Part shown: piece after piece, positions 11,941 to 62,854 of the stretch
Position numbering within the stretch: position 1 is the stretch's first letter
How the letters are laid out: every line of letters starts with the position of its first letter
Assembly: GCA_001780165.1 (NCBI GenBank)
Contig: MFFQ01000079.1
Location: forward strand, 2,348-66,347
Direction: 5' to 3'
DNA length: 64,000 bases
Source of the DNA: Candidatus Eisenbacteria bacterium RBG_16_71_46
Lineage (GTDB): Bacteria > Eisenbacteria > RBG-16-71-46
Translations under genes and position numbers: made by a program
Notes under the pieces: model-generated
Database searches by the model: none
The model's input: only the letters and a program-made list of their open reading frames with translations
What the model was told of the DNA's origin: nothing

Positions 11941-11956
11941 CGGGAGGAGACATCCG

Positions 11957-12352
11957 ATGCGACGCACCGTGGGGATGGCGCTGGCCGCAGCGCTCGTGCT
12001 GGCCGGTTGCGGTTCCCTCAACTTCATCAAGCGCCGCCTGCCACCCCCAACCGAAGGCCCCGCGGGGGTGACCTTCCGGTTCGACGCGCCGTCCGCCCAG
12101 GTGGTCCAGCTGGCGGGAAACTGGCCGGAGAACAACTGGCTGCGAGGCCAGGCCCAGACCGGGAGCTTCCTGGTCGGCGAGATGTCAGATCCGGACGGCG
12201 ACGGGATCTGGGAGCGCACGGAGAAGCTCCCGCCTGGCCGCTACGAGTACAAGTTCGTCATCGACCGGGTGAACTGGCGTTACGACCCCAACAACTCGAA
12301 CCGTACCGACGACGGCTACGGCGGCTTCAACTCGCTGCTCGACGTCCAGTGA
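11957..12352 (+). CDS. lipoprotein consisting of one CBM48-like glycogen-binding module
   Basis: A GGAGGAG RBS precedes the start. The lipobox is MALAAALVLAGC. The module reads VTFRFDAPSAQVVQLAGNWPENNW...GIWERTEKLPPGRYEYKFVIDRVNWRYDPNN...DDGYGGFNSLL. Confidence 0.85.
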   Translation: MRRTVGMALAAALVLAGCGSLNFIKRRLPPPTEGPAGVTFRFDAPSAQVVQLAGNWPENNWLRGQAQTGSFLVGEMSDPDGDGIWERTEKLPPGRYEYKFVIDRVNWRYDPNNSNRTDDGYGGFNSLLDVQ

Positions 12353-13161: not shown

Positions 13162-13193
13162 CCGGAACCGGCGTCCTCGAGGAGACCTCCGTC

Positions 13194-13988: not shown

Positions 13989-14059
13989 GCACGCGGCCCG
14001 TCGCGACGGAAGGTGTCCGTCGCCGGCCCTCCGCTTCTCCCGATCCCGAGGAGTCCCCG

Positions 14060-16729
<2,670 letters not shown>

Positions 16730-36100: not shown

Positions 36101-36191
36101 GCGCGGACACCGCGCCGATCACGATCACGCACAGGATCATCATCACCGCCGTCACCGGCCGGCGCAGGCTCCAGCGCGGGAGGTTCACCAC
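33156..36191 (-). CDS. RND efflux transporter permease (HAE1 family, MdtC/AcrB-like)
   Basis: The 1011 aa ORF begins MVNLPRWSLRRPVTAVMMILCVIVIGAVS...LPDVDFPGLDIEIPYPNA. It has 12 TM segments and two large periplasmic loops. The conserved TM4 region MMGLMLAVGLLVDNAVVVLE is present. Confidence 0.95.
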   Translation of the reverse strand: MVNLPRWSLRRPVTAVMMILCVIVIGAVSAPRLPLAFLPDVDFPGLDIEIPYPNALPAQVEEEITRPAEEALATLSRVRAIHSWSSPNSANIYVQFDWGEDVEPLRVEAREKLERIRDQLPADVDRIRVNSFRSSDIPVLECRISATRDLSQSYELLDRHVADPLRRVPGVAKVELYGVEPPEIRIDFRLDALRRHGVDAEVVLARLDAANHSVSAGQIRRPGETMPLRIVNQFASLDDIESFPVGARGLGLADVARVAYAEPDLDYGRHLDRTRAVGLNVIKESGANTVDVATRARRVLTEMKRDPLLEGIQVLTFTDQAEEIQNSLRGLMQSGLVGAVLATGVLFFFLRRLTATLVVALAIPVSLLAACALLFFTGRSLNILSMMGLMLAVGLLVDNAVVVLESIERLRHKGRGRLRAALEGSREVLPAVITSTATSVIVFLPLVLGGRTEITTWIGEVGRTIIFTLGCSLLLSLTAIPLAMGRVLPAGVSPRIGAVEWLAARYHVLLDWTLRHRPLTLGAGVLLFAVSVAAFIPVDKSAFTGTRVEAVQIRYEFADNLNYREVERYVSRVEDWIQDRRDSLHVKSTYSYFTNNMAITRAYLAAGWADDDGAQQVRKMLRDGLPSLPGLKLSLRGDDDNSGPSRLGVRLFGDPGPRLDDLAAEVRRRLTLVSGLTDVELGGQKGRQEVQVAVRGDRAARHGLTTAGVAQAVALFFRGRPLARYRGPEGEVQITARLANEDRERLDRLRDLPLGGADGQVVPLAAVADFRTVETPASIQRQQRRSVVTVAGNYAASQGGQVRKAATQQLKAMNFPPGYSWSFGMGLEEESQTQQEMLVNLLLALVLVYLVMAALFESLLHPFAIMFALPFAFVGIAWVCLLTGSPFNLMAQIGLLILVGIVVNNGVVLLYHVHQLRGRGLGREQAVLEAARDRLRPILMTTTTTILGLLPLALGQNRVGDVLYFPLARTVIGGLASSTLLTLILVPCLYTALEDGQRLIARVWRQGPRAA

Positions 36192-36258
36192 GGCGGGCTC
36201 CCGTCGCGGGCGGCACCCACGCCACGGGCCGCGCTTCCGCCGCCGTCCCGCGCCCCGC

Positions 36259-39200: not shown

Positions 39201-39417
39201 CGCCCACGCCCTCCTCCACCGGGCGGGTCACGAACTGCTCGACGTCCGCCGGGGCCGCGTCGGGGAGGTCGGTGCGGACGGTGAGCGAGGGGTAGGAGAT
39301 GTTGGGCAGCAGGTCCACCGCGAGGCGCGAGGCCGCCACCAGCCCGAACACCACGATGCCCGCGGTCGCCATGAACACGGTGATCGGGCGGCGGATCGAG
39401 GCGTCTGCCAGCCGCAT
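36259..39417 (-). CDS. RND efflux transporter permease (HAE1 family, MdtB/AcrB-like)
   Basis: The 1052 aa ORF begins MRLADASIRRPITVFMATAGIVVFG...LPNISYPSLTVRTDLPDA. It carries GGLALGVGMLVDNSIVVLESIF. It is the second RND paralog in tandem. Confidence 0.95.
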   Translation of the reverse strand: MRLADASIRRPITVFMATAGIVVFGLVAASRLAVDLLPNISYPSLTVRTDLPDAAPADVEQFVTRPVEEGVGVVPGLVRMHSVSRPGQSEVTLEFASGTRMDLASLAVREKLDLVTLPREARRPALLRFDPSLDPIMRLRLAGGGNLKRLRRIAEQTVQRDLEGVAGVAAVKVSGGEEEEIQVEVDAARLNAVGLTVGDVTRRLGEENINLAGGSLTEGRSEYLVRAVNQFLAPEEIGGVVLATRPDGIVRVSDVATVARGARDREVVARVGGEESVEIAVYKEGDANTVTVARAVRRRLDRLQLSPEMRLVTVADQSRFIQAAIGDVMSAAVVGGLLAILVLFAFLHDLRTTLIIGLSIPVSVLATFVIMYRFGLSLNLMSLGGLALGVGMLVDNSIVVLESIFRKREEGLGPVAAASQGAGTVATAVAASTFTTVAVFLPLVFVEGLAGQLIRDQALTISFSLLASLVVALTLVPTIAALAARRRAGTADAAPSLPPGRWTGFLGWAAYLAVFVPRLVIRGMGRLGRGSAPVVGRLLVPFDAGYGALSRAYPRLLARALARPRAVLGLSAAALVLAVLMGLMLPRDLFPSFTQGEFRFNVTLPAGSALEVTDETLDRLTRAVKDDPRVRFAYSSAGQTDLSAFAGSAREANRGQVAVVMKRASDRRGEEAVAATLRREMDRIPGLTYEFERPGLLTFSAPLEAEVYAYDLDTLATLAATVAQRMSAVRGVEDVETSVRLGDPEVRIAFDRDRLAAMSLDPASASRLVRNAVQGEAATQFSDLERKLDVRVRASEDQRSLVSALAQLEVGRNRGSSVPLAAVARLAVERGPGDIRRIGQQRAAVVSANLEGRDLASAAAEIQGALDALPLPPGARVTLAGQNRELGESFASLRFALLLAVFLVYLVMASQFESLLHPFVVMFSLPLALIGVVFTLFATSTPLSIMVFIGLVVLAGIVVNNAIVLVDYARQLRVQGAPKIQALIQAATVRLRPILMTTLTTVLGLLPMVVGIGEGSELRAPLAITLIGGLAFSTLLTLIVIPVVYATVDRSS

Positions 39418-39478
39418 GGGTTCCTCCCCGGGAGGCGGCCCCGCGCGGCGCCCGGCGCCCGCGCGGCCGCGGTGGTCG

Positions 39479-40591
39479 CTACAGGGTCACCGAGCGGATC
39501 TTCGCCCCCGGCTTGAGCCCGCCCTGGCCGACCGTGACCACGCTGTCGCCCGCGGAGAGCCCGGAGAGGATCTGGGCGGTGTCGTTCTCCACCGCCCCGA
39601 GCGTGACCGGAACGCGCACCACGCTGTCGCCGCGGGCCACGAAGACGAAGGATTCGCCGTCCTCCTGGACCACGCCGCGCCGCGGCATCAGCAGCGCGTC
39701 GGTGAAGGCGCCGGTCTTGAGCCGCACCCGGGCGAACGCGCCCGGCCGCAGCTCGCCGGCCGGATTGGGCAGCTCGAGCGTCACCTTGAACGTGCCGTTG
39801 CTGCGGTCCACCGTGGGGTTGACCAGCGCCACGCGCGCGCGAATCTCCCGGCCGGGGTGCGCGTCCATGGTCAGGCCCGCTTCCTGCCCGACGTGGACCC
39901 GCGTCAGCTCGCGCTCCGGAAAGTAGAGCGGCGCGCGCAGCGGGTCGAAGTCGATCAGCCGGAAGCACTCCTTGCCGACCGGCACCGTCTCGCCGAGGCT
40001 GATCAGCCGATCCACCACCCGGCCCGCGAACGGAGCGGTGAGGCGCGTCTGGGACAGGTCGTAGCGCGCCTGCTCGAGCTCCACCCAGGTATTGCGCCGC
40101 TTGAGCTCGAGGTCGTCCATTTCCTTCTTGCTCAGGTAGTTCTGCTCGACGAGCTGCCGGCCCCGCTCCAGCTCGCGCTCGGCCATCTCCAGGGCGAGCT
40201 GGGTGCGCTCGAGCGCCAAGCGGGCCTCGGTGTCCTCGAGGCGCGCCAGCACCTCGCCCTTTTTCACCCACTGCCCCTCCTCAACCCCCAGCGCCACGAC
40301 CTGGCCGGCGCGGCGGGCGACCAGCACGGCGGAATGGCGCGCCTCGAGCGTGGTCGTGGTCTCGAGGAAGGTGGCGATCGCGCCGGCGCCCACCGCGGAC
40401 AACTCGACCGGCACCGGGAGCGGGGCGTCCTTGTCGGACTTCTTCTTGTCCTTCGAGGCGTTCCCGTTGGCGTTGCGGGCGACGAGCGCCCCGCCCGCGA
40501 GTGCCCCCAGGGCCAGCGTGGCCATCACCGACCAGAGCACGATCCGTCGCGAGCGGCGTTTCGCAACCTGCTGTTCCATCGGGACCTCCAT
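39479..40591 (-). CDS. efflux RND transporter periplasmic adaptor subunit (MFP/HlyD family)
   Basis: The 370 aa ORF has an N-terminal TM anchor, a lipoyl-like motif GQVVALGVEEGQWVKKGEVLARLED, a coiled-coil hairpin and beta-barrel domains. Confidence 0.9.
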   Translation of the reverse strand: MEVPMEQQVAKRRSRRIVLWSVMATLALGALAGGALVARNANGNASKDKKKSDKDAPLPVPVELSAVGAGAIATFLETTTTLEARHSAVLVARRAGQVVALGVEEGQWVKKGEVLARLEDTEARLALERTQLALEMAERELERGRQLVEQNYLSKKEMDDLELKRRNTWVELEQARYDLSQTRLTAPFAGRVVDRLISLGETVPVGKECFRLIDFDPLRAPLYFPERELTRVHVGQEAGLTMDAHPGREIRARVALVNPTVDRSNGTFKVTLELPNPAGELRPGAFARVRLKTGAFTDALLMPRRGVVQEDGESFVFVARGDSVVRVPVTLGAVENDTAQILSGLSAGDSVVTVGQGGLKPGAKIRSVTL

Positions 40592-46202: not shown

Positions 46203-47192
46203 TCAGGCGGCGATCAGCAGCGTCTCGGCGAACGCCCACTGCTGGTCGATCCACCGGCCACCTTCGACGCCGAAGCCCGTGCGCCGGCCGATCTCGCGCG
46301 CCTCGCCCGCCGCGTACTTGTGGGAACTCTCGGTCCAGATGGTCTCGCCCGGCGCGAAACGAACCCGGAGACCCGCGGCCGGCACCTGCACCTCCTGGGG
46401 CGAGGCGGCGCGCAGGTGCATCTCGACGCGGCGCTCGCTCGCGTCGTAGCGCACCGCGTGGGCGAAGGCATCGAGGTCGAAATCCGCGCCCAGCTCGCGA
46501 TTGATCCGGCCCAGCAGGTTGAGGTTGAAGGCCGCGGTGACCCCCGCGGCGTCGTCGTAGGCCGCCAGCAGCCGCGGCACCGGCTTTTCGAGATCGGTGC
46601 CGAGCAGCAGGCCGTCTCCCGGCAGCAGCGACCGCCGCACCTGGCGCAGGAACGACTCGGCCGCCGGCCGGTCGAAATTGCCGATGGTGCTGCCGAGGAA
46701 GAGCAACAGCAGGCGATGGCCCGCCGGCCGGCGCCGCGCGACGTCGCCGAGCCCGCCCAGGTAGTCGCTCTCGATGCCCTCGAAGCGCAGCGATGGAATC
46801 CGGTCCAACTCGCGCTCGCAGTGGCGCAGCGCCGCCGCCGAGATGTCGATGGGAAAGTAGCACGTCAGCGGCTGCCGGCGCGCCAGCGCCTCGAGCAGCC
46901 AGCGCGTCTTGCGCCCGCTGCCGCTGCCGAGCTCGCTCACGATCAGCGGGCCGGGGATTCGGCCCACGATCTCGTCCGCCCGCATCCGCAAGATGCGCTC
47001 GTCGGCCGCCGTGAGACCGTACTCCGGGAGCTGGCTGATCGCCTCGAACAGCGCAGAGCCGACGTCGTCGTAGAGGTATCTCGAGGGCAGCGTCTTCTGT
47101 CCGGACCGGGTCAGCCCGGCGCGCACGTCGGCGGCGAACTCCGCCGTGCCCTGAGCTTCGCCGCGGGCCAGATCTTCCGCCTGCCGGATCAC
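46203..47192 (-). CDS. egtD: L-histidine N-alpha-methyltransferase (ergothioneine biosynthesis)
   Basis: GTG at 47192 overlaps the egtB stop (GTGA). Motifs are LPSRYLYDDVGSALFEAISQLPEYGLT, VSELGSGSGRKTRWLLEAL, FLGSTIGNF and WTESSHKY. Confidence 0.9.
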   Translation of the reverse strand: MIRQAEDLARGEAQGTAEFAADVRAGLTRSGQKTLPSRYLYDDVGSALFEAISQLPEYGLTAADERILRMRADEIVGRIPGPLIVSELGSGSGRKTRWLLEALARRQPLTCYFPIDISAAALRHCERELDRIPSLRFEGIESDYLGGLGDVARRRPAGHRLLLLFLGSTIGNFDRPAAESFLRQVRRSLLPGDGLLLGTDLEKPVPRLLAAYDDAAGVTAAFNLNLLGRINRELGADFDLDAFAHAVRYDASERRVEMHLRAASPQEVQVPAAGLRVRFAPGETIWTESSHKYAAGEAREIGRRTGFGVEGGRWIDQQWAFAETLLIAA

Positions 47193-48505
47193 CGCGTCAC
47201 CAGCCGGAACGTGGTGCAGGCGTACGGGTAGTGGGGCTGGAACCAGTTGCGGAAGGAGCGCCGCAGCATGCAGGCCGCGGTGCGCGGTGAACCGCCCTTC
47301 ATGACGAAGTGCTGGCCGTCGAAGAAGTTGGCCGAGTAGCCCGCGTAGAAGGGAAACGGCACGAACCCGTCGAACGGGCCGAAGGTCGTCGCGGTCCACT
47401 CCCAGCCGTTGCCCACCAGGTCCGCGATCCCGAACGCGCTGTCGCCGGCCGGGAACGATCCCACCGGCGCCGGATCCCACCCGTGGAAGTCGAAGTTGCC
47501 GTGACGGGCCTCCGGCTCGTCCTCGCCCCACGGGTAGGCGCGCTCGTGGCCGTCGGGCGTACCGTACGCGGCGCGGTGGAACTCCGCCTCGGTGGGCAGC
47601 CGCTTCCCGGCCCAGCGCGCGTAAGCGCGCGCCTCGGCCAGACTGACGACCACCGGCGCGTCGAGCGGGAGCTGAGTCTCGTGAAACATGCCCCGCAGGT
47701 ACCAGCCGTCGGAGCGCCGCAGCCAGTCGTGCGGATTCTGGCTCGGCCGGCGCGATTGCCACGCCCAGTCGTCATCCGCCCACCAGCGCCGGTTCTCGTA
47801 GCCGCCGGCGCGGAGGAACTCGAGGAAACCGCCATTGGTCACCTGGGTGAGGTCGATCTGGAACGAAGGGACCTCGACCACGTGTTCGTCGAACTCGTTG
47901 TCCCAGCCGAAGGCCGTGTCGCGTCCGAGCCCGAGCGCGGCGCGGCCGGCGGGGATGCGGACCATGCGCCGCTTGAGTGCGCGCGGCGGCGGGGGTGCTA
48001 CCAGCGCCGGCGGGCGTTTGTGATTGGTCGGCAATTGGTGGAGCAGGTAGGCCAGCGTCTCGGCGTGCATCAGCCGGTGCTCGATCGCCACCTGGATCAG
48101 GGTGCCGTCGCGCAGCTCCGGCGCCGCCTCGCCGGCGTGGTCGAGGGCGCGGTCCACGGCCTCGCGGGCCCGGCGGTTGTACTCGCGCACCTTCTCCACC
48201 GGGGGCCAGTCCGAAGCAGGTTCGTTGGGCAGGCCGCCGTCCACCGGATCGATGCCGAAGGCGAACAACTGGTCGAACGCCGAGTCGAAGGAGGGCCTGC
48301 CGAGCGCGCCGCGCGGGATCAGGTTCCAGTCGAAGGCCTCGACGTGGCCGAGGTAGAAGATCAGGCGGTGCCGCTCGGGAATCGGCCGCTCGTGCAACGC
48401 CCCCGGGGCCAGCAGGTCGAACAGCTCGTCGGTGCGCGAGCGGGCGTCGGCGAGACGCTCGGCGAGCAGCGTGCGATCCTCGATGATCGTGCGTGCAGTC
48501 GTCAT
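47189..48505 (-). CDS. egtB: ergothioneine biosynthesis sulfoxide synthase EgtB (DinB-like + FGE-sulfatase domains)
   Basis: A GGAGG RBS precedes the start. The DinB iron-site region is IFYLGHVEAFDWNL...HRLMHAETLAY. The FGE-type domain has RLPTEAEFHRAA, VGNGWEWTAT and the terminal RSFRNWFQPHYPYACTTFRLV. Confidence 0.9.
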   Translation of the reverse strand: MTTARTIIEDRTLLAERLADARSRTDELFDLLAPGALHERPIPERHRLIFYLGHVEAFDWNLIPRGALGRPSFDSAFDQLFAFGIDPVDGGLPNEPASDWPPVEKVREYNRRAREAVDRALDHAGEAAPELRDGTLIQVAIEHRLMHAETLAYLLHQLPTNHKRPPALVAPPPPRALKRRMVRIPAGRAALGLGRDTAFGWDNEFDEHVVEVPSFQIDLTQVTNGGFLEFLRAGGYENRRWWADDDWAWQSRRPSQNPHDWLRRSDGWYLRGMFHETQLPLDAPVVVSLAEARAYARWAGKRLPTEAEFHRAAYGTPDGHERAYPWGEDEPEARHGNFDFHGWDPAPVGSFPAGDSAFGIADLVGNGWEWTATTFGPFDGFVPFPFYAGYSANFFDGQHFVMKGGSPRTAACMLRRSFRNWFQPHYPYACTTFRLVTR

Positions 48506-52756: not shown

Positions 52757-53458
52757 CTAGCCCCAGCCCTGCTCGAGCAGCGAGCGGGTCTCGGCCACCG
52801 CCGCCGCCCACACCGCGCGCATCTCGTCGTCCGGACGCTGGTAGCGGCCCCCGAAATTCCCGTCTCCCACGAACTCGCGGACCGCCTGTGGGGTCATCGT
52901 GGCGATGCGCGAGGAGTCGATCATCGGCTTCGCCCCGGACGGGGGCTCCACGCCGGCGAGCCGGGTCCAGGGGAAGCTCTCCATCCACGAGGCGTGCGAG
53001 GCCTGGGGATCGATGCACTGCACCTCGGCCCACACCCGCGGCGCGTTCCACCAGCTGTGGAAGCGGACCCGCACCCCGGCGTGCGCTCCCTGCCAGGCCT
53101 CGAGCGCCGGGAGCACCGGCTGATTGCCGCCGTGGCCGTTCGCCACCAGGACGCGGCGAAAGCCGGTGCCGGCGAGGCTGTCGAGGACGTCCGTCAGCAC
53201 GGCGGCGAGGGTCTCGGTGCGCAGCGAGACCGTGCCCGGGTAGGCGCGAAAGGCGGGGGTGATGCCGTAGGCCAGCACCGGGAACACCGGAACCCCGAGC
53301 GGTTCGGCCGCCTCGATCGCGAGGCGCTCGGCAAGGATGGCATCGGTCGCCAGACTCAGGTAGGCGTGCTGCTCGATGCTGCCCACCGGCAGCACCGCGC
53401 GATCCTCGCGCGCCACCAGCGACTCCACCTGCATCCAGTTGAGATCCGCGATGCGCAT
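52757..53458 (-). CDS. creatininase-family (creatinine amidohydrolase/MftE-like) protein
   Basis: ATG at 53458 gives the 233 aa protein MRIADLNWMQVESLVAREDRAVLPVGSIEQHAYLSLATD...VLVANGHGGN. These are the family metal-site motifs EQH and NGHGGN. Confidence 0.85.
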   Translation of the reverse strand: MRIADLNWMQVESLVAREDRAVLPVGSIEQHAYLSLATDAILAERLAIEAAEPLGVPVFPVLAYGITPAFRAYPGTVSLRTETLAAVLTDVLDSLAGTGFRRVLVANGHGGNQPVLPALEAWQGAHAGVRVRFHSWWNAPRVWAEVQCIDPQASHASWMESFPWTRLAGVEPPSGAKPMIDSSRIATMTPQAVREFVGDGNFGGRYQRPDDEMRAVWAAAVAETRSLLEQGWG

Positions 53459-53888
53459 CGCGTCCCGTCGTCGAGGCTGTGCGTGCCGCCGGCGGGCGCC
53501 GCGCCCCGCGACCGGGGGCGCGCGGTGGGCCCGCGCTTCCGTGCGCCCGCAGCCCCTCCCCGCGCGCGCGGCGCCACTATAGGCAGCGCGCGCCCGGGCG
53601 CAAAGCCGCCGCCGGGTCCGGCGCGCGATGCGCCCACTGGACGAGCTGGATCCAGCGGACGCCGGGCACGAGCCTGGCGTCCCCAACCCTCCGAGGACGC
53701 GTGGCGCTCGCCCTCCCACCCCGCGCCGCTTGGCCGGCCGCGTGGCGCCGGCTCTCTCACCCCGCGCCGATCGCCGAACGAAGGCGGAAGCGCAAACCGC
53801 CCGGGCGATACCGCGTCGCGTGCGGACGAGCGACCGCGGACCACCCGGGCGGCAATGAGACGTCCCGCCGGGACGAGGCGGACCGAGC

Positions 53889-54472
53889 CTAGCGCACCTT
53901 GGCCAACCGCAGCACCGCCCGCTTCCCTCCCTCGATGAGCCGGATCACGTACACCCCAGGCGCCAGCCGTGCGCCCTCGCGCAGATCGAGCACGTGGCTT
54001 CCTGGTCCGAGCGAGCCGACCTCGCGCGAGAGCACTCGACGGCCGGCGATGTCGAGCAGCTCGAGCGTCGCGGGTCCCCCGCCCGCCAGCGAGAACGCGA
54101 TCGCGAACGGTTCGGCCGCGGGGTTGGGCAGGGCGCCGCGCAGGCGAGGTGCGCGTCGCCGCCCTCGATCTGGAGCAGCGCGGCCGGCCGCGGGCGCGTG
54201 GCGACGAAGTAGACGCCGAGGCCGAGCCCCACGAAGGTGCCGATCGCGAAGCCGTTCTCGATGATCTCGCCGTCGTTGCCGCCGTCATCCACGACCGCGA
54301 AGGCCACTCGCGCCACCGTGCCGGCCAGGGCGCCATGGACCGTGGAACGGAAGCTCTCGACCGCCGGGTTCTCCTGGCTCCGGCGGCTGACGCTCACGCC
54401 GGCGAGCGCGGGGAGGGCGAGGCCCATGATGGCCACCACGCAGCCACACACGATCGAGCAGGGTCTACGCAT
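53889..54472 (-). pseudogene. small secreted protein with a T9SS-type/FlgD-Ig C-terminal domain, split by a frameshift near 54132-54160
   Basis: The frame starting at 54472 gives MRRPCSIVCGCVVAIMGLALPALAG...LQIEGGDAHLA. A different frame then reads ...LRGALPNPAAEPFAIAFSLAGGGPATLELLDIAGRRVLSREVGSLGPGSHVLDLREGARLAPGVYVIRLIEGGKRAVLRLAKVR, ending at TAG 53889-53891. This could be a genuine pseudogene or an assembly indel. Confidence 0.5.
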
Positions 54473-54901
54473 GACGACCTCCCGTGGGGAAGGACGATGC
54501 GTGGGAAGGAACGCGGCGAGAGGCTAGCACAGCCGACCCGCGCGTCCGCAGCCGGCGCGTCCGATGACGTCCCGGCGGTAGCGGGGCCGGCGTGAGTGCG
54601 GTCCCACGAGCATGGCTGCGCCCGCGCAGGTGCCGCGCGAGACCCGTCGCTCCACTTGCCCGCGAGCCGGGCCGGGGCTCGCCATCTGCCGGGCGCGGCA
54701 GGCCACATGCCAGATCGGCAGTCTTCCCACCTCGCAACGGCTCGTCGCACACCCGCGATCGCGATGCCTTGCGGGAAATTAGCGCGTCGCCCGACGAAAC
54801 GACCGGACTGGAACGACTCATGCTGGCCCGCTTGCGGACCGCCTCGGCCGGTCCTGCGATCGATGTCATCAAACCCCACGAACATGAGGAGGAATCGAGC
54901 C

Positions 54902-57082
54902 ATGCACCCCCAGCGCATCCACCTGCCCTGGCCCGCCCTCGCGACCGCCGCGCTCCTTTTCGGTCTGGCCACCGCCCCGTCGCCAGCCACGGCGCAACCA
55001 CCCCTCCTGGACCCGGTGACGCATCCCAAGTTCCAGAACGAGCTGCCGCGCCCGACGAAAATCGATGCCGGGAAGGGCCAGCATTTCGAGATGGAGATGA
55101 ACGAGACCGTGCAATGGCTGGGCCTCGTGGACGTCGACAACGCTCATGCCCGGCTCATGACCACGGTGTGGGGCTACGGTCCGGCCGGGTCGGCGGTCAC
55201 CTATCCGGGCCCCACGATTGTGGCGTCGAAGAACGGCCCGATCACCGTCACCTGGAACAACAGCCTGCCCCCCTACAATCACGGCTTCCCCGGACTGGGC
55301 GGCCACCTGCTGCCGGTCGACCCGACCCTGCACCTGGCGCATCCGGTCGCAGGCGGCATTCCCACCGTGACGCATCTGCACGGCGGGCACACGGAGTCGG
55401 CCAGCGACGGACTGCCCGAGGCGTGGTTCACCCAGGGGTTCGCAGAGACCGGCCCGCAGTTCGTCAAGCAGCGCTACACCTACGACAACGATCAGGAGGC
55501 GGCAACCCTGTGGTACCACGATCACGCTCTGGGCATCACGCGTCTCAACGTCTACGCCGGGCTCGCCGGGTTCTACCTGCTGCGCGACCCGAACGAGATG
55601 CGTCTGTTGAGGACGAACGTCCTGCCCCAGGGGCCGTACGAGAGGGAGATCGTCATCCAGGATCGCATGTTCGCGAAGGACGGCCAGCTCTTCTATCCCT
55701 CCGAAGACCCCGAGATCGAGCCCGGCTTCGATCCCCTGCCGCCGGGTCCCAGCGCGATCGCGGAATTCTTCGGGGACTTCATCGTCGTCAATGGCACGGC
55801 CTGGCCGCGATTGACGGTCGAGCCGCGCAAGTATCGGCTGCGCCTGCTCAACGGCTCCGACTCGCGCTTCTACGTGCTGGAGTTTCGGAACGATGCGTTC
55901 GGCGGCACGGATCAACCCTTCTTGCAGATCGGCACCGATGACGGACTGCTGCCGATGCCCGTCCCGCTCGATCGGCTGAAGCTCGGCCCGGGCGAGCGCG
56001 CCGATGTCGTCTTCGACTTCTCGCGCTTCGGTGACGGGACGGAACTGTTCATGAGAAACTTCGGCCCCGACGAGCCCTTCAAGGGCCTGGACGAGGACGG
56101 GAACCCGAGCGACGGCGAAGGCGGCGCGCTCCCGCCCGCGGATCCCATGACCACGGGTCAGATCATGAAATTCGTGGTCGAGGTGCCGGACTACCAACTG
56201 GTGGGCGGCATTCCCCCGAGCGGCCCGAATGCGGCGGACGCGACGGTGGACGTTGGCACGCGCCTGCGCCCGCCGATCCAGCCGCTCAAGCAGAAGGGAG
56301 CGACCCGGCAGCTCGTGCTGTTCGAGGGCCTGGACCGCTACGGCCGTCTCCAGCCGCTGCTCGGCACGCTGGCGGACGGCTCGCTGTCCTGGTTCCAGTC
56401 CATCACCGAGAACCCCATGCTGGACGACGTGGAGGTGTGGGAGATTTACAACGCCACGCCGGACGCGCATCCCATTCACCTGCATCTCGTCGCCTTCCAG
56501 ATCCTGAACCGGGAGAGCTTCGACGGCACGGTCGCCGAGAAGCCCCAGCCGCAGCACGACGGTGGCGAGGGCGTGGGCGGAATCCTCACGGTGAACGCGC
56601 TGGGCGGCGACGCGCAGGGACCGGAGCCCAACGAGAACGGCTGGAAGGACACCGCCGTCATGCTGCCGGGCCAGGTCACCCGCCTGATCGCCAAGTTCGA
56701 CCGCGCGGGGCGCTACGTGTGGCACTGCCACATCCTGTCGCACGAGGATCACGAGATGATGCGCCCGTACGAGGTGCGCTCGCGGGCCGCGATCGCCATG
56801 CCGGCCGAGCCCGTCGCTCAGGATGCGACGCCCCGGCTGCGGGCGCGCGGCACCGAGCTGATGCTCACGCTCGGACGCGCGGCGCCGGTCGGTGTCAAGG
56901 TCTTCAACGTGCTCGGCCAGGAGGTTCGCGACCTGGGCCGCGCCAGCTACGACGCCGGCGCCCACGCGATCCGCTGGGACGGCCGCGACGTCCGCGGGCA
57001 CGAGGTGCCGAGCGGCGTGTACTTCTATCAGGTGAGGCTGCCGGAGACCTGGCTGGTCGCCAAGGCGATCCTCCTCCGCTGA
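54902..57082 (+). CDS. secreted three-domain multicopper oxidase (CotA/bilirubin-oxidase-like) with a T9SS-type/FlgD-Ig C-terminal domain
   Basis: ATG at 54902 follows a GAGGAGGA RBS and there is a signal peptide. The copper motifs are THLHGGH, WYHDHA, HPIHLHL and HCHILSHEDHEMM. The C-terminus is VGVKVFNVLGQEVRDLGRASYDAGAHAIRWDGRDVRGHEVPSGVYFYQVRL...AILLR. Confidence 0.9.
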   Translation: MHPQRIHLPWPALATAALLFGLATAPSPATAQPPLLDPVTHPKFQNELPRPTKIDAGKGQHFEMEMNETVQWLGLVDVDNAHARLMTTVWGYGPAGSAVTYPGPTIVASKNGPITVTWNNSLPPYNHGFPGLGGHLLPVDPTLHLAHPVAGGIPTVTHLHGGHTESASDGLPEAWFTQGFAETGPQFVKQRYTYDNDQEAATLWYHDHALGITRLNVYAGLAGFYLLRDPNEMRLLRTNVLPQGPYEREIVIQDRMFAKDGQLFYPSEDPEIEPGFDPLPPGPSAIAEFFGDFIVVNGTAWPRLTVEPRKYRLRLLNGSDSRFYVLEFRNDAFGGTDQPFLQIGTDDGLLPMPVPLDRLKLGPGERADVVFDFSRFGDGTELFMRNFGPDEPFKGLDEDGNPSDGEGGALPPADPMTTGQIMKFVVEVPDYQLVGGIPPSGPNAADATVDVGTRLRPPIQPLKQKGATRQLVLFEGLDRYGRLQPLLGTLADGSLSWFQSITENPMLDDVEVWEIYNATPDAHPIHLHLVAFQILNRESFDGTVAEKPQPQHDGGEGVGGILTVNALGGDAQGPEPNENGWKDTAVMLPGQVTRLIAKFDRAGRYVWHCHILSHEDHEMMRPYEVRSRAAIAMPAEPVAQDATPRLRARGTELMLTLGRAAPVGVKVFNVLGQEVRDLGRASYDAGAHAIRWDGRDVRGHEVPSGVYFYQVRLPETWLVAKAILLR

Positions 57083-57165
57083 CCTCGAGAACGGCGCGAT
57101 CCCCCCTGCGCCGAGACCGAAGGGCGAACACCGCGACCACCCCCGGCAACGAGGGTGGTCGCGGG

Positions 57166-58878
57166 TCACGCCATCGGCGCTTGCCCCCGCCGGAGCACGA
57201 TCACCGTCATGTCGTCCGCCTGATGATCGAGGCTCGAGTGACGTGACACCTCGTCGAAGATCCGCTGGCCGATCGCACCCGCACTCAGGTTCCGCGCGTC
57301 TCGCACCAGATCGCGCAGGCGCTCCTCGCCGAACATCTCTCCCGCGGGCGAGCACGCCTCGGTCACGCCGTCGGTGTACAGCACCAGCACGTCACCGGGG
57401 GCAAGCGCGACCCGCGCCTTCTGGTAGCGGGCGTCGGGGATCGCCCCGAGGAGCGGACCGCCCTCCGACAGTTCCTCGACGGCTCCCCCCGCCCGCATGA
57501 GCAGCGGCGGATTGTGGCCCCCATTGATGTAGACCAAGTCGCGCGTCGAGGGCTCCAGCACCCCGAGGAAGAAGGTCACGAACCGTTTGGACTCGGTGCT
57601 GTCGAGGAGCTGGCGATTCATGGCCGCCATCCATTCACAGGGGTCCTCGCGTGGCCGCATCGCTTGGCTCCGCAGGCAGGCCTGGATATTGGACATGAGG
57701 AGCGCCGCCGGGATGCCCTTGCCCGAAACGTCGGCCAACACCAGAGCCAGCGGCCCCGCGCTCCCCCACGGCAGCACGTCGTAGTAGTCGCCCGAAACCT
57801 CGAGGCTCGGCACGTTGGCGGCGAAGAGATCGAACCCCTCGAGCCGGGGCAGCTCCTGCGGGAACAGCATGAGCTGGATCTCGCGCGCCATCTCGAGCTC
57901 GCGCCGGATGCGCGCCGCTTCGCGCGCCTCGCGGTTCAGCCGTTCGATGTTCTCGGTCATCGAGTTGAACGATCCGGCGAGGAACCCGAATTCCTCCTGC
58001 GCCATCTGCGGCGCGCGATAGGAGAGATTGCCGCGCGAGACCTCCCCCATCGCCGCGACCAGCTCCCCGAGCGGTCGGCTCACGCGCGCCGACAGCAGAC
58101 GGCTCACGTAGACGGCGAGAATGGTGACGACCGCCATCCCCGCGAGCAGCCAGGCGCTCTGCCGCCGCACCAGCTGCGAGATGAAGGGAGCGAACGGAAC
58201 TTGTTCCACGTGGGCGACGGAGCGCCGCCAGCGCGCGGTGACCCCGCTGTCGGTGGAGGCGCTGACCACCAGGACGCGCGGCGCGTCGGCCTCCCCCGGC
58301 GCGCCCGCCCAGGTCGCGAAGCTCTCGACGAAGCCGATGCGTCGTTGCACCGGCTGCGCGGCCGTCGCGAGAAAGCGCTCCAGCGCTGCGGCGGGGACTT
58401 TGGGCTCGTCGGCGCGCGCTTCGCCGGAGTCGTGCGACCCCGGCCCGGCGTCGGTTTCCGCGCGTTCACGTTCCGCGATCAGCCTCCACGCGCCCGCGTC
58501 TCTGCGGTAGAGCCGAAGCGCGCGGACCGTCACCGAGGCCGGGATCGCTTCCTGGTCGACCAAGCGGCCGAGAATGCAATCGAGCGCGGTCGAGCCTGCC
58601 GCGGGCCCGCATTGGGCGGCGGCGGCCCGCAGGGCGCCGGCGTTGGCCAGCGCCAGATCGTCGAGGTATTGGCGCGCGAAGAACGCGAGGTCCCGCTTGA
58701 CCGCTTCGGTGCCGGTCTCGGTCCACAGGCGCTCGAACAGCGAGCGCAGGCCCTGGCCGGTCGCGAAGAGCGACGCGATCGAGACCGCGCCCAGGGTCAG
58801 AGCGACCAGGACGATGCCGAGGAACAGGCTGCGCTCGAACCGGGTGCGGGCGCGCGGACGGGGCGAAGGAGTCGCCAT
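57166..58878 (-). CDS. membrane sensor phosphatase: periplasmic domain + HAMP + PP2C/SpoIIE serine phosphatase
   Basis: ATG at 58878 gives a protein with two TM segments flanking a ~300 aa periplasmic region. The HAMP region is RVSRPLGELVAAMGEVSRGNLSYRAP...FLAGSFNSMTENIERL. The SpoIIE/PP2C region has VSGDYYDVLP, VLADVSGKGIPAALLMS, LYTDGVTEA and DDMTVIVL. Confidence 0.85.
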   Translation of the reverse strand: MATPSPRPRARTRFERSLFLGIVLVALTLGAVSIASLFATGQGLRSLFERLWTETGTEAVKRDLAFFARQYLDDLALANAGALRAAAAQCGPAAGSTALDCILGRLVDQEAIPASVTVRALRLYRRDAGAWRLIAERERAETDAGPGSHDSGEARADEPKVPAAALERFLATAAQPVQRRIGFVESFATWAGAPGEADAPRVLVVSASTDSGVTARWRRSVAHVEQVPFAPFISQLVRRQSAWLLAGMAVVTILAVYVSRLLSARVSRPLGELVAAMGEVSRGNLSYRAPQMAQEEFGFLAGSFNSMTENIERLNREAREAARIRRELEMAREIQLMLFPQELPRLEGFDLFAANVPSLEVSGDYYDVLPWGSAGPLALVLADVSGKGIPAALLMSNIQACLRSQAMRPREDPCEWMAAMNRQLLDSTESKRFVTFFLGVLEPSTRDLVYINGGHNPPLLMRAGGAVEELSEGGPLLGAIPDARYQKARVALAPGDVLVLYTDGVTEACSPAGEMFGEERLRDLVRDARNLSAGAIGQRIFDEVSRHSSLDHQADDMTVIVLRRGQAPMA

Positions 58879-58901
58879 GGCTCCTGGCGCGATCGACGCG
58901 G

Positions 58902-59639
58902 CTACGGCTGCAGGCTCGACCGGACCAGGTCGAGCGCCCCGGTGAACAGGCGGCCGGGCAGCTGGCCCGGCCTGAACGCGGGAGATTCCATCCGGATGGA
59001 AAGCAGGCTCCCCTTGCCGCGGAACAATGCCATCATCTCCTTGGGCAGGACCCCCGCGAGCTTCACGTCCTCGCCACCCGATCGCCCGCTCGGAGGTCGC
59101 GGAACCAGGGCGACCTCCAGTTGGATGGTGTACTCCTCGCCGGGCTCGAGGATCCCGAGGTCCACGACGTGCAGCATGGTGAAGCGCCTGAAGCGATCGA
59201 GCGAGGCATAGTAGCTCTTCTGCGTGGCGATCTCCCGCGCGTTCTCGGTCAGCACGTACTCCTCGTACCATCGGCTGTAGCTCAGCGTCCGGCGCACCAC
59301 CTCCCTCACCACCATGCGGTGGCCGAATCGCTCCTTCTTACGGACCTCGGTCGAGACCACGCAGTCCACGCTCAAACCCCGCTCCTCGAGGGCGTCGTCG
59401 AGCCGCGCCTCCCGCAGCGACTGGATGGGGATCGCGAAGCCGATGAACAGGCTGCCGCCCTCCTCGTGAGAGTTCAGCGAGTCGAGGCCCTGCCCGCGGC
59501 ACGGGGGGACCGCGGCCACGAGCAGCAGCGCGAGCACGGCCCAGTGGAGCGCGGATGCGCGCCGCCCGGTCGGCGGCCAGGCCTGCGGAGACCGGGCGGA
59601 GCCGGGGGCCCCGCGCCTCGCGACCCTCGCGCCATTCAT
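58902..59639 (-). CDS. secreted/periplasmic protein, DUF4390-like (tentative)
   Basis: ATG at 59639 overlaps the upstream stop (ATGA). A hydrophobic signal-like segment WAVLALLLVAAVPPC is present. The body LFIGFAIPIQSLREARLDDALEERGLSVDCVV...RTLSYSRWYEEYVL...YYASLDRFRRF...LEPGEEYTIQLEVAL follows the pattern I recall for DUF4390. That domain is typically encoded just upstream of HAMP sensors. Confidence 0.6.
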   Translation of the reverse strand: MNGARVARRGAPGSARSPQAWPPTGRRASALHWAVLALLLVAAVPPCRGQGLDSLNSHEEGGSLFIGFAIPIQSLREARLDDALEERGLSVDCVVSTEVRKKERFGHRMVVREVVRRTLSYSRWYEEYVLTENAREIATQKSYYASLDRFRRFTMLHVVDLGILEPGEEYTIQLEVALVPRPPSGRSGGEDVKLAGVLPKEMMALFRGKGSLLSIRMESPAFRPGQLPGRLFTGALDLVRSSLQP

Positions 59640-61978
59640 CGCGTGGCCCCTCCGAAGAAGTCGAACTGGAACCGCCAGATGCGGTCGCCTGCTTCGTCCA
59701 GTGGCCGCGCCCAGGTCACCGACGCACTGGTCGGGAAGAAGACCGCGCGGCCCTGCCCGATGAACAGGCCGGCGCCCAGCGCCAGGTCCTCGCGGAGCCG
59801 CGGGATCCCCTGCCGCTCGTCGCGCCGCCACGCGTGGCCCGCGTCGAACCCAGCGAAGAGCCGGAACTGCACTTCCTGCTCCGGAAGGCCGATCGGCACC
59901 AGGGAGAGCCGGGTGCGGGCGAGCAGGCTGCGATCGCCGCTGAAGCGCGCGTCGGCGAAACCCGGCAAGGTGCCCTTGCCCCCGACGTCAAACGACTCCT
60001 GCAAGGGCAGGCGACCGGTCGCGAGCCCCGCGCGCAGGCGCTGGTCGAGGTACAGGCGGCGGTGCAGGCGGAAGGACGGGGCGACGTTGATCTCCCAGCG
60101 CACGAAATCGCGATCGCCGCCCAGGGCCCCGCCCGCCGCGCGGACCTCGCCCTCCACGAACACGCGCTCCCACGTCCGCGGGCGGGTCCGCCGGTAGCGG
60201 TACGCCAGGGTGGTGGCGTGCAGGCGGCCACTCGCGACTCCGGCGACCGGATTCGGGCCGAAGTGGTCCCGCCCGAACAGGCTGGAGGTTTCGGCGTTGC
60301 GCAGCGGCGACTCGCGCACGAGGGCGAGCGTGAGCTCGGCCTCGTGCCCGGGGAAGCGCTCGAAGGTGGGTCGCCATCCGGCCGTCCATCCGCGCGTGTG
60401 GATGTAGCGCACGTGGTCTTCGCCCCACAGCATCGCGCTGGCGGTCGCCTCGGCGGTGTTGGAAAGCTCCTCGTGGTAGAAGGGCGTCGGCTGGTCGCGG
60501 TAGGTCACGAGCGGGATCCAAGGCGCCCGTCCGCTCACCGCGACAAGGTGGTGCCAGCGCTCGTCCGCCAGGCCATAGTCCCAGGCCCACCGGGCTCGCA
60601 ACGTCGCGTCCGACCGCGAGTCGACCTGGCTCAGGTGCAGCGTGAATCCCGCGCGCGGTGCAGGCGCCGGCGCGGCGCTCTCCGAAGCGTCGGGCTCCGC
60701 CGCCGCCACCGTCCGGTCCGCTCCACGCCCCGCCTCCCAGTAGAGCTCCGTCGTTCCCTTGACCCGCGGCCCCGTGACCTTGCTCCAGTAGAACGGCAAG
60801 GGAACGGGCGGCATCCGCCGCCGGGCCACGCTCGGCTGGAGCCACACCTCGGGCCGGAAGAGATTCGCCCCCAGGGTTCCCGGCCCCGCCGTCCCGGGCG
60901 CGATCTCGAAACCGAGCCCGCCGGGCCGTTCCCGCCTTGCACGCAGGGTGCCGAGCTGCGCGGCGCGCTCGAGCGTGACCTCTTCGGTCCCGCCCTGCCT
61001 GCGGGCCACCCGGAGGTTGGTCTGGTCGCCGGGCCGCAAGCCGGCGTAGACCCGATCGAATCCCTCGAGCGTGACGAGGGGCTCTCCGGCGATGCTCAAG
61101 ATGCGATCCCCGGGGCGAAGCGCCGCTTTCTCCGCCGGCGAGCCGGGCTCGACGCGGCGGATGAACAATCCCCCGGAATCGGCGCCGGTCACCGAGAGCG
61201 ACTCCGCTTCGATCAGGAGCGGGCTCATCTCCTCGAGCCGGAGCCCCGCCCACGGCCGGGCCGGCGACTGCGCCACATAGCGGACCGTTCGACTCGTGCC
61301 ATCGCCAACGAAGCGAAGCGTGATGTCGTCGCCCACGCGAAGCGGCTCGGTCTTCTGGCGAAGCTCGCGGGGCGATCGAACGCTGTCGTCGTTCACGGCC
61401 ACGATCGCCACGCCGCTTTGGAACCCCGCGCCGGCGAAGCCCGGCACCCCCCGTTGCGCCCAGACCACCACCGGCAGGCTGTCGGGCGCGGTCGAGCCGC
61501 GCGGCATCTGCGCGCGGATGTCCGGGCGGTCCACGAGCGGCGCCACCTCGAAGCCGAGGTCGCCGCGCGGCAACTCCTCCAGGGTCACCGACACCGCGTG
61601 CGTCTCCTGGCCGCGGCGAACCGTGAGCGGGAGCGAAGACGACGGTGGGTGTCTTCGGAGAATCGCGTCGAGGCCTCGCGGCGAGTAGATCGGCCGGCCG
61701 TCGGCGGAGACGATCAGATCCCCGACGCCGAGGCGCGCGCGTTCGGCCGGAGAGCCGGCGTCGAGCCCCACGATCGCGACCCCGGCATCGATCGAGCTCA
61801 GGGAGAGCCTGAGCCGGTCCGAGGACGAGAGGGAGGCGACCAGGGCCCCGAGGTAGCGTGGCGGTGTTCGGAAACCGCCAGCCGCGCCGGCGGCGGCAGG
61901 GGACCCCAGCACGACGAGCGGAATCGCCGCGTGCGCCACCAGCAGAGTCCGCAGGACCGTCGCGCGGCCGCGACCCAT
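59636..61978 (-). CDS. PDZ-domain (2 clear + 1 degenerate) protein fused to an Omp85/BamA-like C-terminal beta-barrel
   Basis: ATG at 61978 is followed by a signal peptide. The PDZ motifs are GVAIVGLDAGSPAERARLGVGDLIVSADGRPI and GLFIRRVEPGSPAEKAALRPGDRILSIAGEPL. The C-terminal ~330 aa carry FDVGGKGTLPGFADARFSGDRSLLARTRLSL. This parallels the Omp85 segment GG..(L/V)RG(Y/F)......GD......E.R. Confidence 0.7.
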   Translation of the reverse strand: MGRGRATVLRTLLVAHAAIPLVVLGSPAAAGAAGGFRTPPRYLGALVASLSSSDRLRLSLSSIDAGVAIVGLDAGSPAERARLGVGDLIVSADGRPIYSPRGLDAILRRHPPSSSLPLTVRRGQETHAVSVTLEELPRGDLGFEVAPLVDRPDIRAQMPRGSTAPDSLPVVVWAQRGVPGFAGAGFQSGVAIVAVNDDSVRSPRELRQKTEPLRVGDDITLRFVGDGTSRTVRYVAQSPARPWAGLRLEEMSPLLIEAESLSVTGADSGGLFIRRVEPGSPAEKAALRPGDRILSIAGEPLVTLEGFDRVYAGLRPGDQTNLRVARRQGGTEEVTLERAAQLGTLRARRERPGGLGFEIAPGTAGPGTLGANLFRPEVWLQPSVARRRMPPVPLPFYWSKVTGPRVKGTTELYWEAGRGADRTVAAAEPDASESAAPAPAPRAGFTLHLSQVDSRSDATLRARWAWDYGLADERWHHLVAVSGRAPWIPLVTYRDQPTPFYHEELSNTAEATASAMLWGEDHVRYIHTRGWTAGWRPTFERFPGHEAELTLALVRESPLRNAETSSLFGRDHFGPNPVAGVASGRLHATTLAYRYRRTRPRTWERVFVEGEVRAAGGALGGDRDFVRWEINVAPSFRLHRRLYLDQRLRAGLATGRLPLQESFDVGGKGTLPGFADARFSGDRSLLARTRLSLVPIGLPEQEVQFRLFAGFDAGHAWRRDERQGIPRLREDLALGAGLFIGQGRAVFFPTSASVTWARPLDEAGDRIWRFQFDFFGGATR

Positions 61979-62293
61979 CGATGATCCCTTCGCGTGCCGG
62001 GTCTCTTCGCCGCCGGAGCCTGCTCGGGCGGGTGGCCGCTTCCGCTCCGGCGCGCGGAGGCGACCGTGTCGACCCGGGAGTCTACACCCGGACCCAAGCG
62101 ACGGCATGGCGTCCGGATTCGCGTTGACCGCGGCGCGTGGCGTTGGCCGCTGCCCGAGCCGCGCGGGCGACGGATCGGCGGAACCGAAGCTCGGAACCGG
62201 AGTCTGGAGATGTGGAGAGCAAGACTACGTGACCGCTCTTGACACGACGATCTGTCGGCTTTCTCAGACGGCTCGTTCCGACGGCTCCTGGGC

Positions 62294-62590
62294 GTGCCTG
62301 CGCGCGTGGTCCTCGACCGTCAGGACCCGCGGGACCTGACCACAAGGGCATCGCTCCACGCGCAGGCGGAGATCAGCGCCTACCCGAACCATGGGCGCCG
62401 GCTCCTGATCCCGGGCTTCACCTACGAGACGTTCGGTGATGCGGACGCCGCGCTGATCGATCCCACGAGTTTGCAGAACGGCGCGCGCGAGAAGATCCAG
62501 ACGGCCCTTCTCGAGGGCCCTGTGGTCCTCGACAAGGCTTCGCGTTGGCCCCTGACGGTTCGGTCCACGGCCGCGCCCGAGGGGGAGTAG
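62294..62590 (+). CDS. hypothetical small protein (weak call)
   Basis: The 98 aa ORF has high third-position GC and a non-degenerate composition (ISAYPNHGRRLLIPGFTYETFGDADAALIDPTSLQNGAREKIQTALLEGPVVLDK). It has no recognisable RBS or family. A 7 bp hairpin (62669-62694) follows. Confidence 0.3.
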   Translation: MPARVVLDRQDPRDLTTRASLHAQAEISAYPNHGRRLLIPGFTYETFGDADAALIDPTSLQNGAREKIQTALLEGPVVLDKASRWPLTVRSTAAPEGE

Positions 62591-62854
62591 AACTGCCGGG
62601 CCCCGGGCCTAACGAGCCAAACTCGGTGTGTAGCCACGGCCGCAAGAGGACCACCGGCAAAGAGTCTGGCCGTCTCGCCCCCCCGGAAGACGGCTGCTCC
62701 TTCCCGGCCCCTCCGAAGGCGTTGGGCCGCGCTTGAATGAGTGGCGCCGCCCCCAGGCCCGCGGGCGTATGATCGGGGCCGGTGCGGCGGGCTCCCCCTC
62801 CTCGATACCCTGCCGTGGCCGTCCCGCCCGGCCCCGCAGTACTCGGAGGCCGTC

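Follow-up and report, generated by a model that had tools for sequence, protein, structure and literature searches.

A predicted PDZ-Omp85 outer-membrane protein encoded in a conserved three-gene unit with a DUF4390 protein and a HAMP-PP2C sensor phosphatase

A 64,000-nucleotide stretch of DNA from Candidatus Eisenbacteria bacterium RBG_16_71_46 (contig MFFQ01000079.1, positions 2,348 to 66,347; hereafter the window) carries three adjacent genes for proteins of the cell envelope. The first, g1 (59636–61978, 780 aa), encodes a predicted outer-membrane protein in which PDZ domains are joined to an Omp85-type β-barrel; the second, g2 (58902–59639, 245 aa), encodes an exported DUF4390 (PlrP-like) protein; and the third, g3 (57166–58878, 570 aa), encodes a sensor phosphatase comprised of a transmembrane (TM) segment, a periplasmic domain, a second TM segment, a HAMP domain and a SpoIIE/PP2C domain. 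All three genes, and all parts of them described below, lie on the minus strand. The parts of the triad are of known kinds, but their combination is undescribed, as is the Omp85 subfamily that is here obligately tied to a DUF4390–sensor phosphatase pair.

The G+C content of the window is ~70% and raw lists of open reading frames are full of spurious frames. Analysis of G+C content at third codon positions (GC3) nevertheless picks out exactly three minus-strand coding sequences at this locus, with the same starts as those chosen in an earlier note on this DNA: GC3 is 0.89 for g1, 0.92 for g2 and 0.88 for g3, against only 0.46–0.72 for upstream extensions of the three reading frames. Shine-Dalgarno-like sequences (AAGGGA, GGAGG and AGGAG) precede the three chosen starts. 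The stop codon of g1 and the start codon of g2 overlap in the tetranucleotide ATGA (59636–59639), which we read as translational coupling, and a spacer of 23 nt (58879–58901), which holds the AGGAG sequence, separates g2 from g3. Sequence and GC3 together confirm the coordinates, the overlap and the gap from which the earlier note had argued for three coupled genes. In three of the related loci described below (L002, L003 and the P0042 locus) the g1–g2 junction is likewise a 4-nt overlap or a short gap. The gene on the 3′ side, which is convergent and has its end at 57082, encodes a multicopper oxidase, and the one on the 5′ side is divergent and encodes an FG-GAP repeat protein; with a convergent gene downstream and a divergent gene upstream, the three genes therefore stand as a self-contained unit. 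A scan of positions 56900–62800 detected no sigma-70-like promoter and a single terminator-like site, which lies within g2 but on the wrong strand and is no more than chance would give; neither a promoter consensus nor a terminator consensus could be assigned.

The hydropathy profile of g1 contains one N-terminal hydrophobic segment. It belongs to a predicted signal peptide of ~31 residues (residues ~1–31, MGRGRATVLRTLLVAHAAIPLVVLGSPAAAGAAGG; 61886–61978), with a basic n-region and an Ala-rich c-region as read from the sequence. Three PDZ domains follow: PDZ1 (residues ~40–133; 61580–61861), PDZ2 (residues ~138–236; 61271–61567) and PDZ3 (residues ~245–338; 60965–61246). Pfam places PDZ_2 on g1 in three stretches (9e-27), and NCBIfam types the domains as those of HtrA, DegS and RseP, although all of these NCBIfam matches fall far under the family cutoffs because g1 contains no protease domain. 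PDZ1 has HtrA/DegS/RseP-type matches in both databases, is modelled by AlphaFold2 (AF2) with a predicted local distance difference test score (pLDDT) of 72–87, and matches PDZ1 of DegP in PDB profile searches with E values of 1e-15 to 1e-17. PDZ2 corresponds to the third PDZ_2 stretch and has PDZ-like secondary structure in the AF2 model (pLDDT 63–85), while PDZ3 is defined by the model together with the best Pfam PDZ stretch (residues 268–333). Each of the three contains a motif resembling the carboxylate-binding loop (YLGL, YLGF and SGL, respectively), and in the family alignment these motifs are conserved as YLG[LA], [YD]LGF and W[SA]GLRLEE.

The PDZ domains of g1 are thus of the type found in DegS, RseP and HtrA; unlike DegS and HtrA, however, g1 is without a protease domain, and its PDZ domains sit on a barrel of the outer membrane. 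Pfam returned neither a Trypsin_2 nor a PF00089 match, and only ~40 residues, signal peptide included, precede PDZ1; we reject the possibility that g1 is an HtrA protease. One homologue of g1 (P0005, from JGI) carries the name 'S1-C subfamily serine protease' in its source, apparently on the strength of its PDZ domains.

Between PDZ3 and the barrel lies a linker (residues ~339–395; 60794–60964) that is indel-rich, poorly conserved, variable in length and modelled with pLDDT below 40. No match to POTRA or POTRA_2 was found in g1 by Pfam at E≤1, and this disordered stretch of 57 residues is the only part of the protein left unassigned; within the limits of the sequence and model evidence, this leaves no room for a cryptic POTRA domain. 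The signal peptide and the substitution of PDZ domains for POTRA domains, both claimed in the earlier note, are borne out, and the structure prediction that it had called for fixes the number of PDZ domains at three. The full-length AF2 model, built on an alignment of only 9 sequences, has a mean pLDDT of 57 and comprises three PDZ folds, a disordered linker and β-strands over residues 396–774. PDZ domains of DegP, DegQ and RseP dominate the matches of this model to the PDB, with BamA first appearing at rank 34; the barrel was therefore modelled separately.

The barrel region (residues 396–780; 59639–60793) is defined by AF2, Foldseek and Pfam, and has 15–16 predicted strands. Two Pfam families score above their cutoffs: ShlB (PF03865; 2.2e-8, 34.4 bits against a cutoff of 22.7) and Omp85 (PF01103; 3.6e-6, 27.2 bits against a cutoff of 24). 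The barrel-only AF2 model (the C-terminal 388 residues) has a pLDDT of 65.6 and a predicted template-modelling score (pTM) of 0.64. Compared to the PDB by Foldseek, it finds Sam50, BamA and TamA as the best matches (E values of 2.5e-5 to 1e-3, template-modelling scores of ~0.45–0.5); among the 50 matches listed, the top 46 are all barrels of the Omp85 superfamily and the first exception is BtuB, at rank 47. The barrel sequence profile, compared to PDB sequences, returned at E<1 only BamA chains, matched at the L6 loop, and one POTRA-domain protein. With a pLDDT of 66 and template-modelling scores in this range, the fold assignment is of moderate confidence. An Omp85-like C-terminal region had been claimed from the sequence, and as a barrel of Omp85 type, close to the 16 strands looked for, it stands; its length is ~385 aa (396–780), not the ~330 first estimated.

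Two short motifs speak to the relationship between g1 and known Omp85 proteins. Residues 657–683 (LPLQESFDVGGKGTLPGFADARFSGDR; 59930–60010) resemble the L6 loop, and the barrel profile aligns here (as LPLQEEFYvGGkGTLPGY) with the BamA segment MPFYENFYAGGSSTVRGF. The 'GG..LPGF......GD' segment picked out in the earlier note (residues 666–682) proves to be this L6 motif, with the Arg replaced by Pro: where BamA reads GGSSTVRGF, the g1 family reads GGxGT[LM]PG[YFR] with an invariant Pro672, so that the (V/I)RG(F/Y) Arg is absent. The L6 Arg is important for the function of both BamA and FhaC. The second motif, (F/G)xDxG of strand β13, is present as FAGxDAGNAW, and its Asp712 is found in 8 of 9 sequences. 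In Omp85 proteins the L6 Arg pairs with the β13 Asp to form a conserved lid-lock (PMC11358297). Invariant loss of the Arg suggests, from sequence, that the g1 barrel is not a canonical insertase. By fold, by Pfam score and by its β13 motif g1 is a member of the Omp85 superfamily; it departs from that superfamily in POTRA and in the L6 Arg.

With Omp85/TpsB proteins (BamA, TamA, Sam50 and FhaC) g1 shares the C-terminal barrel fold, with PF01103 and PF03865 above cutoff, an L6 motif of the form GGxxT-x-x-G[YF] and a β13 motif of the form FxGxDAGxxW; it differs from them in having three PDZ domains for POTRA, an invariant Pro for the L6 Arg, and a sensor pair that always follows. Exchange of the periplasmic module has precedents: Omp85 subfamilies with WD40, metalloprotease or patatin (PlpD) domains, or with no N-terminal domain, are known, and among the ten described none carries PDZ (Heinz & Lithgow 2014, PMC4104836). 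Neither that paper nor a 2024 study of Omp85 proteins of the noNterm type (PMC11358297) makes any mention of PDZ, and an Omp85-PDZ fusion appeared in no title or abstract among the literature matches listed. The statement, made in the earlier note, that no system of this composition has been described agrees with the literature searched, in which we found none.

It is possible to view g1 as a factor for the assembly or quality control of outer-membrane proteins (OMPs), a paralogue of BamA or TamA whose PDZ domains hold the β-signals of clients, and to view g2 and g3 as a co-transcribed stress tuner that receives no signal through g1. The Omp85-type barrel and the conserved β13 FAGxDAGNAW are in keeping with such a role, as are PDZ domains of the HtrA/DegS/RseP type, a type known to bind OMP C-termini, and the existence of Omp85 subfamilies with non-POTRA N-termini (PMC4104836). 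The lid-lock Arg of L6, however, is invariantly Pro in the g1 family, and the strict co-occurrence and translational coupling with one specific sensor are unexpected for a general factor. We consider it unlikely that g1 is such a factor.

The second gene of the triad was thought from the outset to encode a DUF4390-like protein, and a Pfam search agrees: g2 matches DUF4390 (PF14334) with an E value of 3.8e-8 and 33.4 bits, against a cutoff of 27, and a precomputed PF14334 match is present in 7 of 8 full-length homologues (P0181–P0188). Hydropathy reveals in g2 a single hydrophobic segment at the N-terminus, with Arg residues before it, and on these grounds we take g2 to be exported. In 10 of 10 homologues (from the loci L001–L007 and L088–L092) the signal peptide has a Cys at its end, and a second Cys, Cys93, is invariant in the five sequences aligned. 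The residue at position −1 to the first Cys varies across homologues (P, A, T, T, P, P, R and S), and there is no canonical lipobox. A non-canonical lipoprotein, or an intramolecular disulfide with Cys93, would both fit the conserved Cys.

The sole DUF4390 protein to have been studied is PlrP, which is periplasmic and whose gene overlaps that of the HAMP sensor kinase PlrS by 4 bp (PMC13001219). Genetic evidence indicates that PlrP, as a periplasmic third component, controls PlrS through the periplasmic domain of the kinase (PMC13001219); these genetics strengthen the link between g2 and g3. In the literature searched, DUF4390 was found only in association with NtrY-type systems. The triad resembles PlrP–PlrS of Bordetella and other β- and γ-proteobacteria in that an exported DUF4390 gene lies immediately 5′ of a coupled gene for a HAMP membrane sensor. 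It differs in that the gene after g2 is not an NtrY-family kinase, the output of g3 being PP2C as opposed to histidine kinase; in that an Omp85 gene takes the upstream position occupied by rsmB; and in that its hosts are Eisenbacteria/Latescibacterota-like and not Proteobacteria. The match of g2 itself to PF14334 is weak (33 bits).

Alternatively, g1 could be a dedicated translocator or insertase of g2, either TpsB-like or lipoprotein-exposing, with PDZ domains that dock the substrate where other barrels use POTRA. The protein g2 would then end up in or on the outer membrane, with g3 sensing whatever g2 is left in the periplasm. Several features are consistent with this: the Cys of the g2 signal peptide, which could be a site of lipidation, is present in all ten homologues; ShlB, the TpsB family, outscores Omp85 in Pfam (34.4 against 27.2 bits); TpsB genes adjoin the gene of their single substrate, much as g1 and g2 overlap by 4 nt; and BamA, which is among the fold matches of g1 (PDB 6t1w), is known to thread the lipoprotein RcsF. 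The residues before the Cys, however, fit no canonical lipobox, and a disulfide with Cys93 explains the Cys equally well; g2 is without a two-partner secretion (TPS) domain; the best folds are Sam50, BamA and TamA, with no FhaC or other TpsB protein among the 50 matches listed; and the only DUF4390 protein studied is periplasmic and acts on a sensor. On balance we think it improbable that g1 exports g2.

The third protein, g3, has two TM segments by hydropathy (residues ~17–40 and 241–263), which enclose a periplasmic sensor domain (residues ~41–240; 58159–58758) with two invariant Cys residues, Cys90 and Cys101. Searched as a profile against Pfam and PDB sequences, this domain resembled no family, the only match being a spurious one to a de novo designed repeat protein. 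A HAMP domain (residues 261–312; 57943–58098; PF00672, 1.6e-11) and a SpoIIE/PP2C domain (residues 375–564; 57187–57756; PF07228, 6.6e-55, 186.5 bits) follow; Pfam found no HisKA or HATPase domain in the protein. The PP2C motifs SGDYYD, DVSGKG, TDG and QADD are invariant in the family alignment and the metal-binding Asp residues are kept; judged by these motifs, the phosphatase is catalytically intact. That the third gene encodes a two-TM sensor with a PP2C output was correctly recognised in the earlier note; its novelty, however, was overstated. Sensors composed of HAMP and PP2C domains are common: the nearest such relatives of g3 are frequent in Acidobacteriota, where many HAMP-PP2C proteins share 31–40% identity with it. 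Two-TM HAMP-PP2C is a known architecture and what is new in g3 is the periplasmic domain only.

RsbU of Chlamydia is a membrane-bound HAMP-PP2C sensor phosphatase of the same layout. So too is SiaA of P. aeruginosa, which g3 matches weakly in NCBIfam (53 bits) and from which it is distinguished by falling far under the SiaA equivalog cutoff of 700 bits and by a periplasmic domain that is unique to the triad. Unlike in the SiaA and RsbU systems, no SiaB/SiaC-like or RsbV/RsbW-like genes are located near g3.

The distribution of the three genes supports the view that they belong together. A word-indexed search of 5.8 billion protein clusters returned nine full-length relatives of g1, all metagenomic, and when 1.84 billion representatives were scanned exhaustively by HMMER with a barrel-only profile, just 14 proteins came out at E≤1e-30. 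Every full-length member of the family is a PDZ+Omp85 protein, of 684–838 aa. In the scan, scores drop from 163 to 94 bits, a gap that sets the g1 barrel profile apart from other Omp85 proteins; below it are generic members of the superfamily (POTRA+CBM9, DUF5686 and short forms).

Profiles of the g1 barrel, g2 and g3 were run on every locus retrieved, about 12 distinct loci in all. Wherever a barrel of the family is present g2 lies directly downstream of it, and each complete contig that reaches far enough has g3 next after g2. The order g1–g2–g3 is kept in the window (L088), in L001, L002/L089, L003/L005, L004, L090, L091 and L092, and in the P0043 locus; in L007 and the P0042 locus the contig ends within or just past g2. 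Identity to the window protein across these loci is about 34–61%, and the flanking genes are unrelated from one locus to the next (Lon/Hsp20, a YidD-domain protein, Ser/Thr kinases with extracytoplasmic function sigma factors, and cytochromes). When a collection of 185,579 species genomes was searched with g1, with g2 or with full-length g3, the same two genomes came back in every case: one is a chromosome from Latescibacterota (CP070677.1), the other an unclassified metagenome-assembled genome. The g3 search returned a further 78 loci, mostly encoding HAMP-PP2C proteins and mainly from Acidobacteriota, which match g3 from the second TM segment onward only; none of the 78 contains g1, g2 or the g3 sensor domain, a domain that turned up in this collection at the two triad loci and nowhere else. 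The three genes co-occur exclusively, as a conserved unit, which answers in the affirmative the question raised in the earlier note of whether they travel together across genomes.

Were the adjacency without meaning, the three would be unrelated envelope genes that happen to be neighbors, a view with which the lack of an assignable promoter or terminator consensus is compatible. Order and tight spacing, however, are maintained in about 12 loci in the face of this sequence divergence and of differing flanks, and the three families co-occur reciprocally and exclusively. We take chance adjacency to be refuted by the synteny data and regard it as exceedingly improbable.

Two further observations concern individual loci. 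In L003 (2876–4153) and L005 (8492–9769) the gene directly upstream of the triad encodes a protein of 425 aa that begins with a YidD domain; YidD is normally ~85 aa. In L096, a 50-kb ENA contig, positions 8493–13128 hold a PDZ piece, a barrel piece that continues in the same frame into part of g2, and a truncated HAMP-SpoIIE gene; this split triad reflects either assembly frameshifts or a decaying copy.

What, then, might the unit do? We propose, and give an even chance to, the view that the triad works as a single conserved signalling relay that spans the envelope, running from g1 through g2 to g3. The protein g1 would be located in the outer membrane, its PDZ domains facing the periplasm and binding peptide C-termini; candidate ligands are exposed C-terminal peptides, for example those of unassembled OMPs. 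According to the ligand bound, g1 would capture or release g2, or would contact g3. The protein g2 would bind the periplasmic domain of g3 and set the output of the phosphatase, as has been proposed for PlrP on PlrS; it is because of this precedent, by analogy, that g2 is presumed to act there. In this way conditions in the outer membrane or periplasm would be translated into dephosphorylation of a cytoplasmic phosphoprotein.

A relay of this kind has counterparts in logic. In the YfiBNR system of P. aeruginosa, YfiB sequesters YfiR and thereby frees the HAMP enzyme YfiN (PMC4655355, PMC4887326). YfiBNR shares with the proposed relay an outer-membrane component, a periplasmic regulator and an inner-membrane HAMP enzyme, and RcsF–BamA/OmpA–IgaA is a further system of similar logic; the likeness is one of possible mechanism and not of family. 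NCBIfam detected no YfiB or YfiR family in g1 or g2, and Pfam found no OmpA/Pal-like or YfiR domain in them and no GGDEF domain in g3. The region of g3 from the second TM segment to HAMP gives sub-threshold NCBIfam matches to DgcN/YfiN (27.1 bits against 325) and to a YfiR-like-associated kinase (37.5 against 194). The triad differs from YfiBNR in that the output of g3 is a phosphatase, not a diguanylate cyclase, and in that YfiB is a Pal-like lipoprotein.

Several points weigh against the relay. The partner of PlrP is PlrS, a histidine kinase that has a PDC domain; the periplasmic domain of g3 is similar to no family detected. The C-termini of g2 proteins mostly end in Pro, which would make them atypical PDZ ligands. 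Confidence in the structure models is moderate (pLDDT 57 and 66, from a 9-sequence alignment). The STAS and anti-sigma-antagonist partners for which the earlier note had advised a search did not materialize in the window or beside the other triads: the 45 gene calls of the 64-kb window include no STAS, RsbW-type kinase or anti-sigma domain and no other plausible PP2C substrate, and none of these is conserved beside the triad in the other loci. Finally, conserved synteny proves a functional link; it does not prove the direction or nature of signalling. As a separate observation, the P0043 locus (JGI 3300042731) carries genes for DRTGG, RsbW-type HATPase_c_2 and [FeFe]-hydrogenase-like proteins ~3.8 kb upstream of its triad (the upstream gene ends at 2150 and g1 starts at 5970); it is the only triad neighborhood with a kinase of partner-switch type, and the arrangement is not conserved elsewhere.

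A more specific version of the relay may be entertained. PDZ domains recognise free C-termini, and the β-signal of OMPs is C-terminal. It is conceivable, and we put this forward tentatively, that a barrel of the Omp85 type came to serve as a sensor in the outer membrane and not as an insertase, that its PDZ domains read the β-signals of unassembled OMPs, and that the DUF4390 protein shuttles the signal to the HAMP-PP2C phosphatase.

The remainder of the window contains several other gene groups. At 46203–48505 (minus strand) an EgtD-like histidine methyltransferase (Methyltransf_33, 312 bits) and an EgtB-like DinB_2/FGE-sulfatase protein are encoded with a 4-nt overlap, and the pair looks like one for ergothioneine biosynthesis. 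At 33156–40591 (minus strand) a gene for an HlyD-type membrane fusion protein is followed by two tandem AcrB-family resistance-nodulation-division (RND) pumps (1011 and 1052 aa), an MdtABC-like arrangement. At 9742–16729 (plus strand) lies a cluster of repeated CBM48/AMPK1_CBM/X25 starch- or glycogen-binding proteins, which ends in an 889-aa α-amylase; three genes upstream of it, at 5937–9645, have no Pfam match. Several secreted proteins of the window have C-terminal domains of FlgD_ig type or like those of the type IX secretion system (T9SS). Three large ones, at 3025–5544 (minus strand), 29888–31777 (minus strand) and 54902–57082 (plus strand), end in a FlgD_ig or CHU_C-like domain; one is without an assigned function, one is an FG-GAP/ASPIC protein and one a multicopper oxidase. 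FlgD_ig and CHU_C-like sorting tags are typical of the Fibrobacteres-Chlorobi-Bacteroidetes (FCB) group and fit an Eisenbacteria/Latescibacterota-like host. The SucA protein encoded in the window shares 67% identity with that of a Candidatus Eisenbacteria member, which also points to a host of this kind. Between a creatininase-like gene and the multicopper oxidase gene, positions 53356–54600 have a weak coding signal, the best call being 53945–54439 with a score of 16.6.

The g1 family is very rare and is found in uncultured bacteria only, and the mechanism suggested here rests on analogy. The triad bears nonetheless on two established ideas. POTRA has been regarded as the periplasmic module that defines Omp85 proteins; g1 shows that the barrel can be reused with another substrate-recognition module. 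The triad also extends the notion of DUF4390 as a third component past NtrY-type kinases and past Proteobacteria, to a possible input from the outer membrane. If the reading in which g1 senses OMP C-termini is true, then the triad would be a new envelope-stress pathway, with g1 as an outer-membrane-resident counterpart of DegS, and DUF4390 would gain a general role as a trans-periplasmic adaptor.

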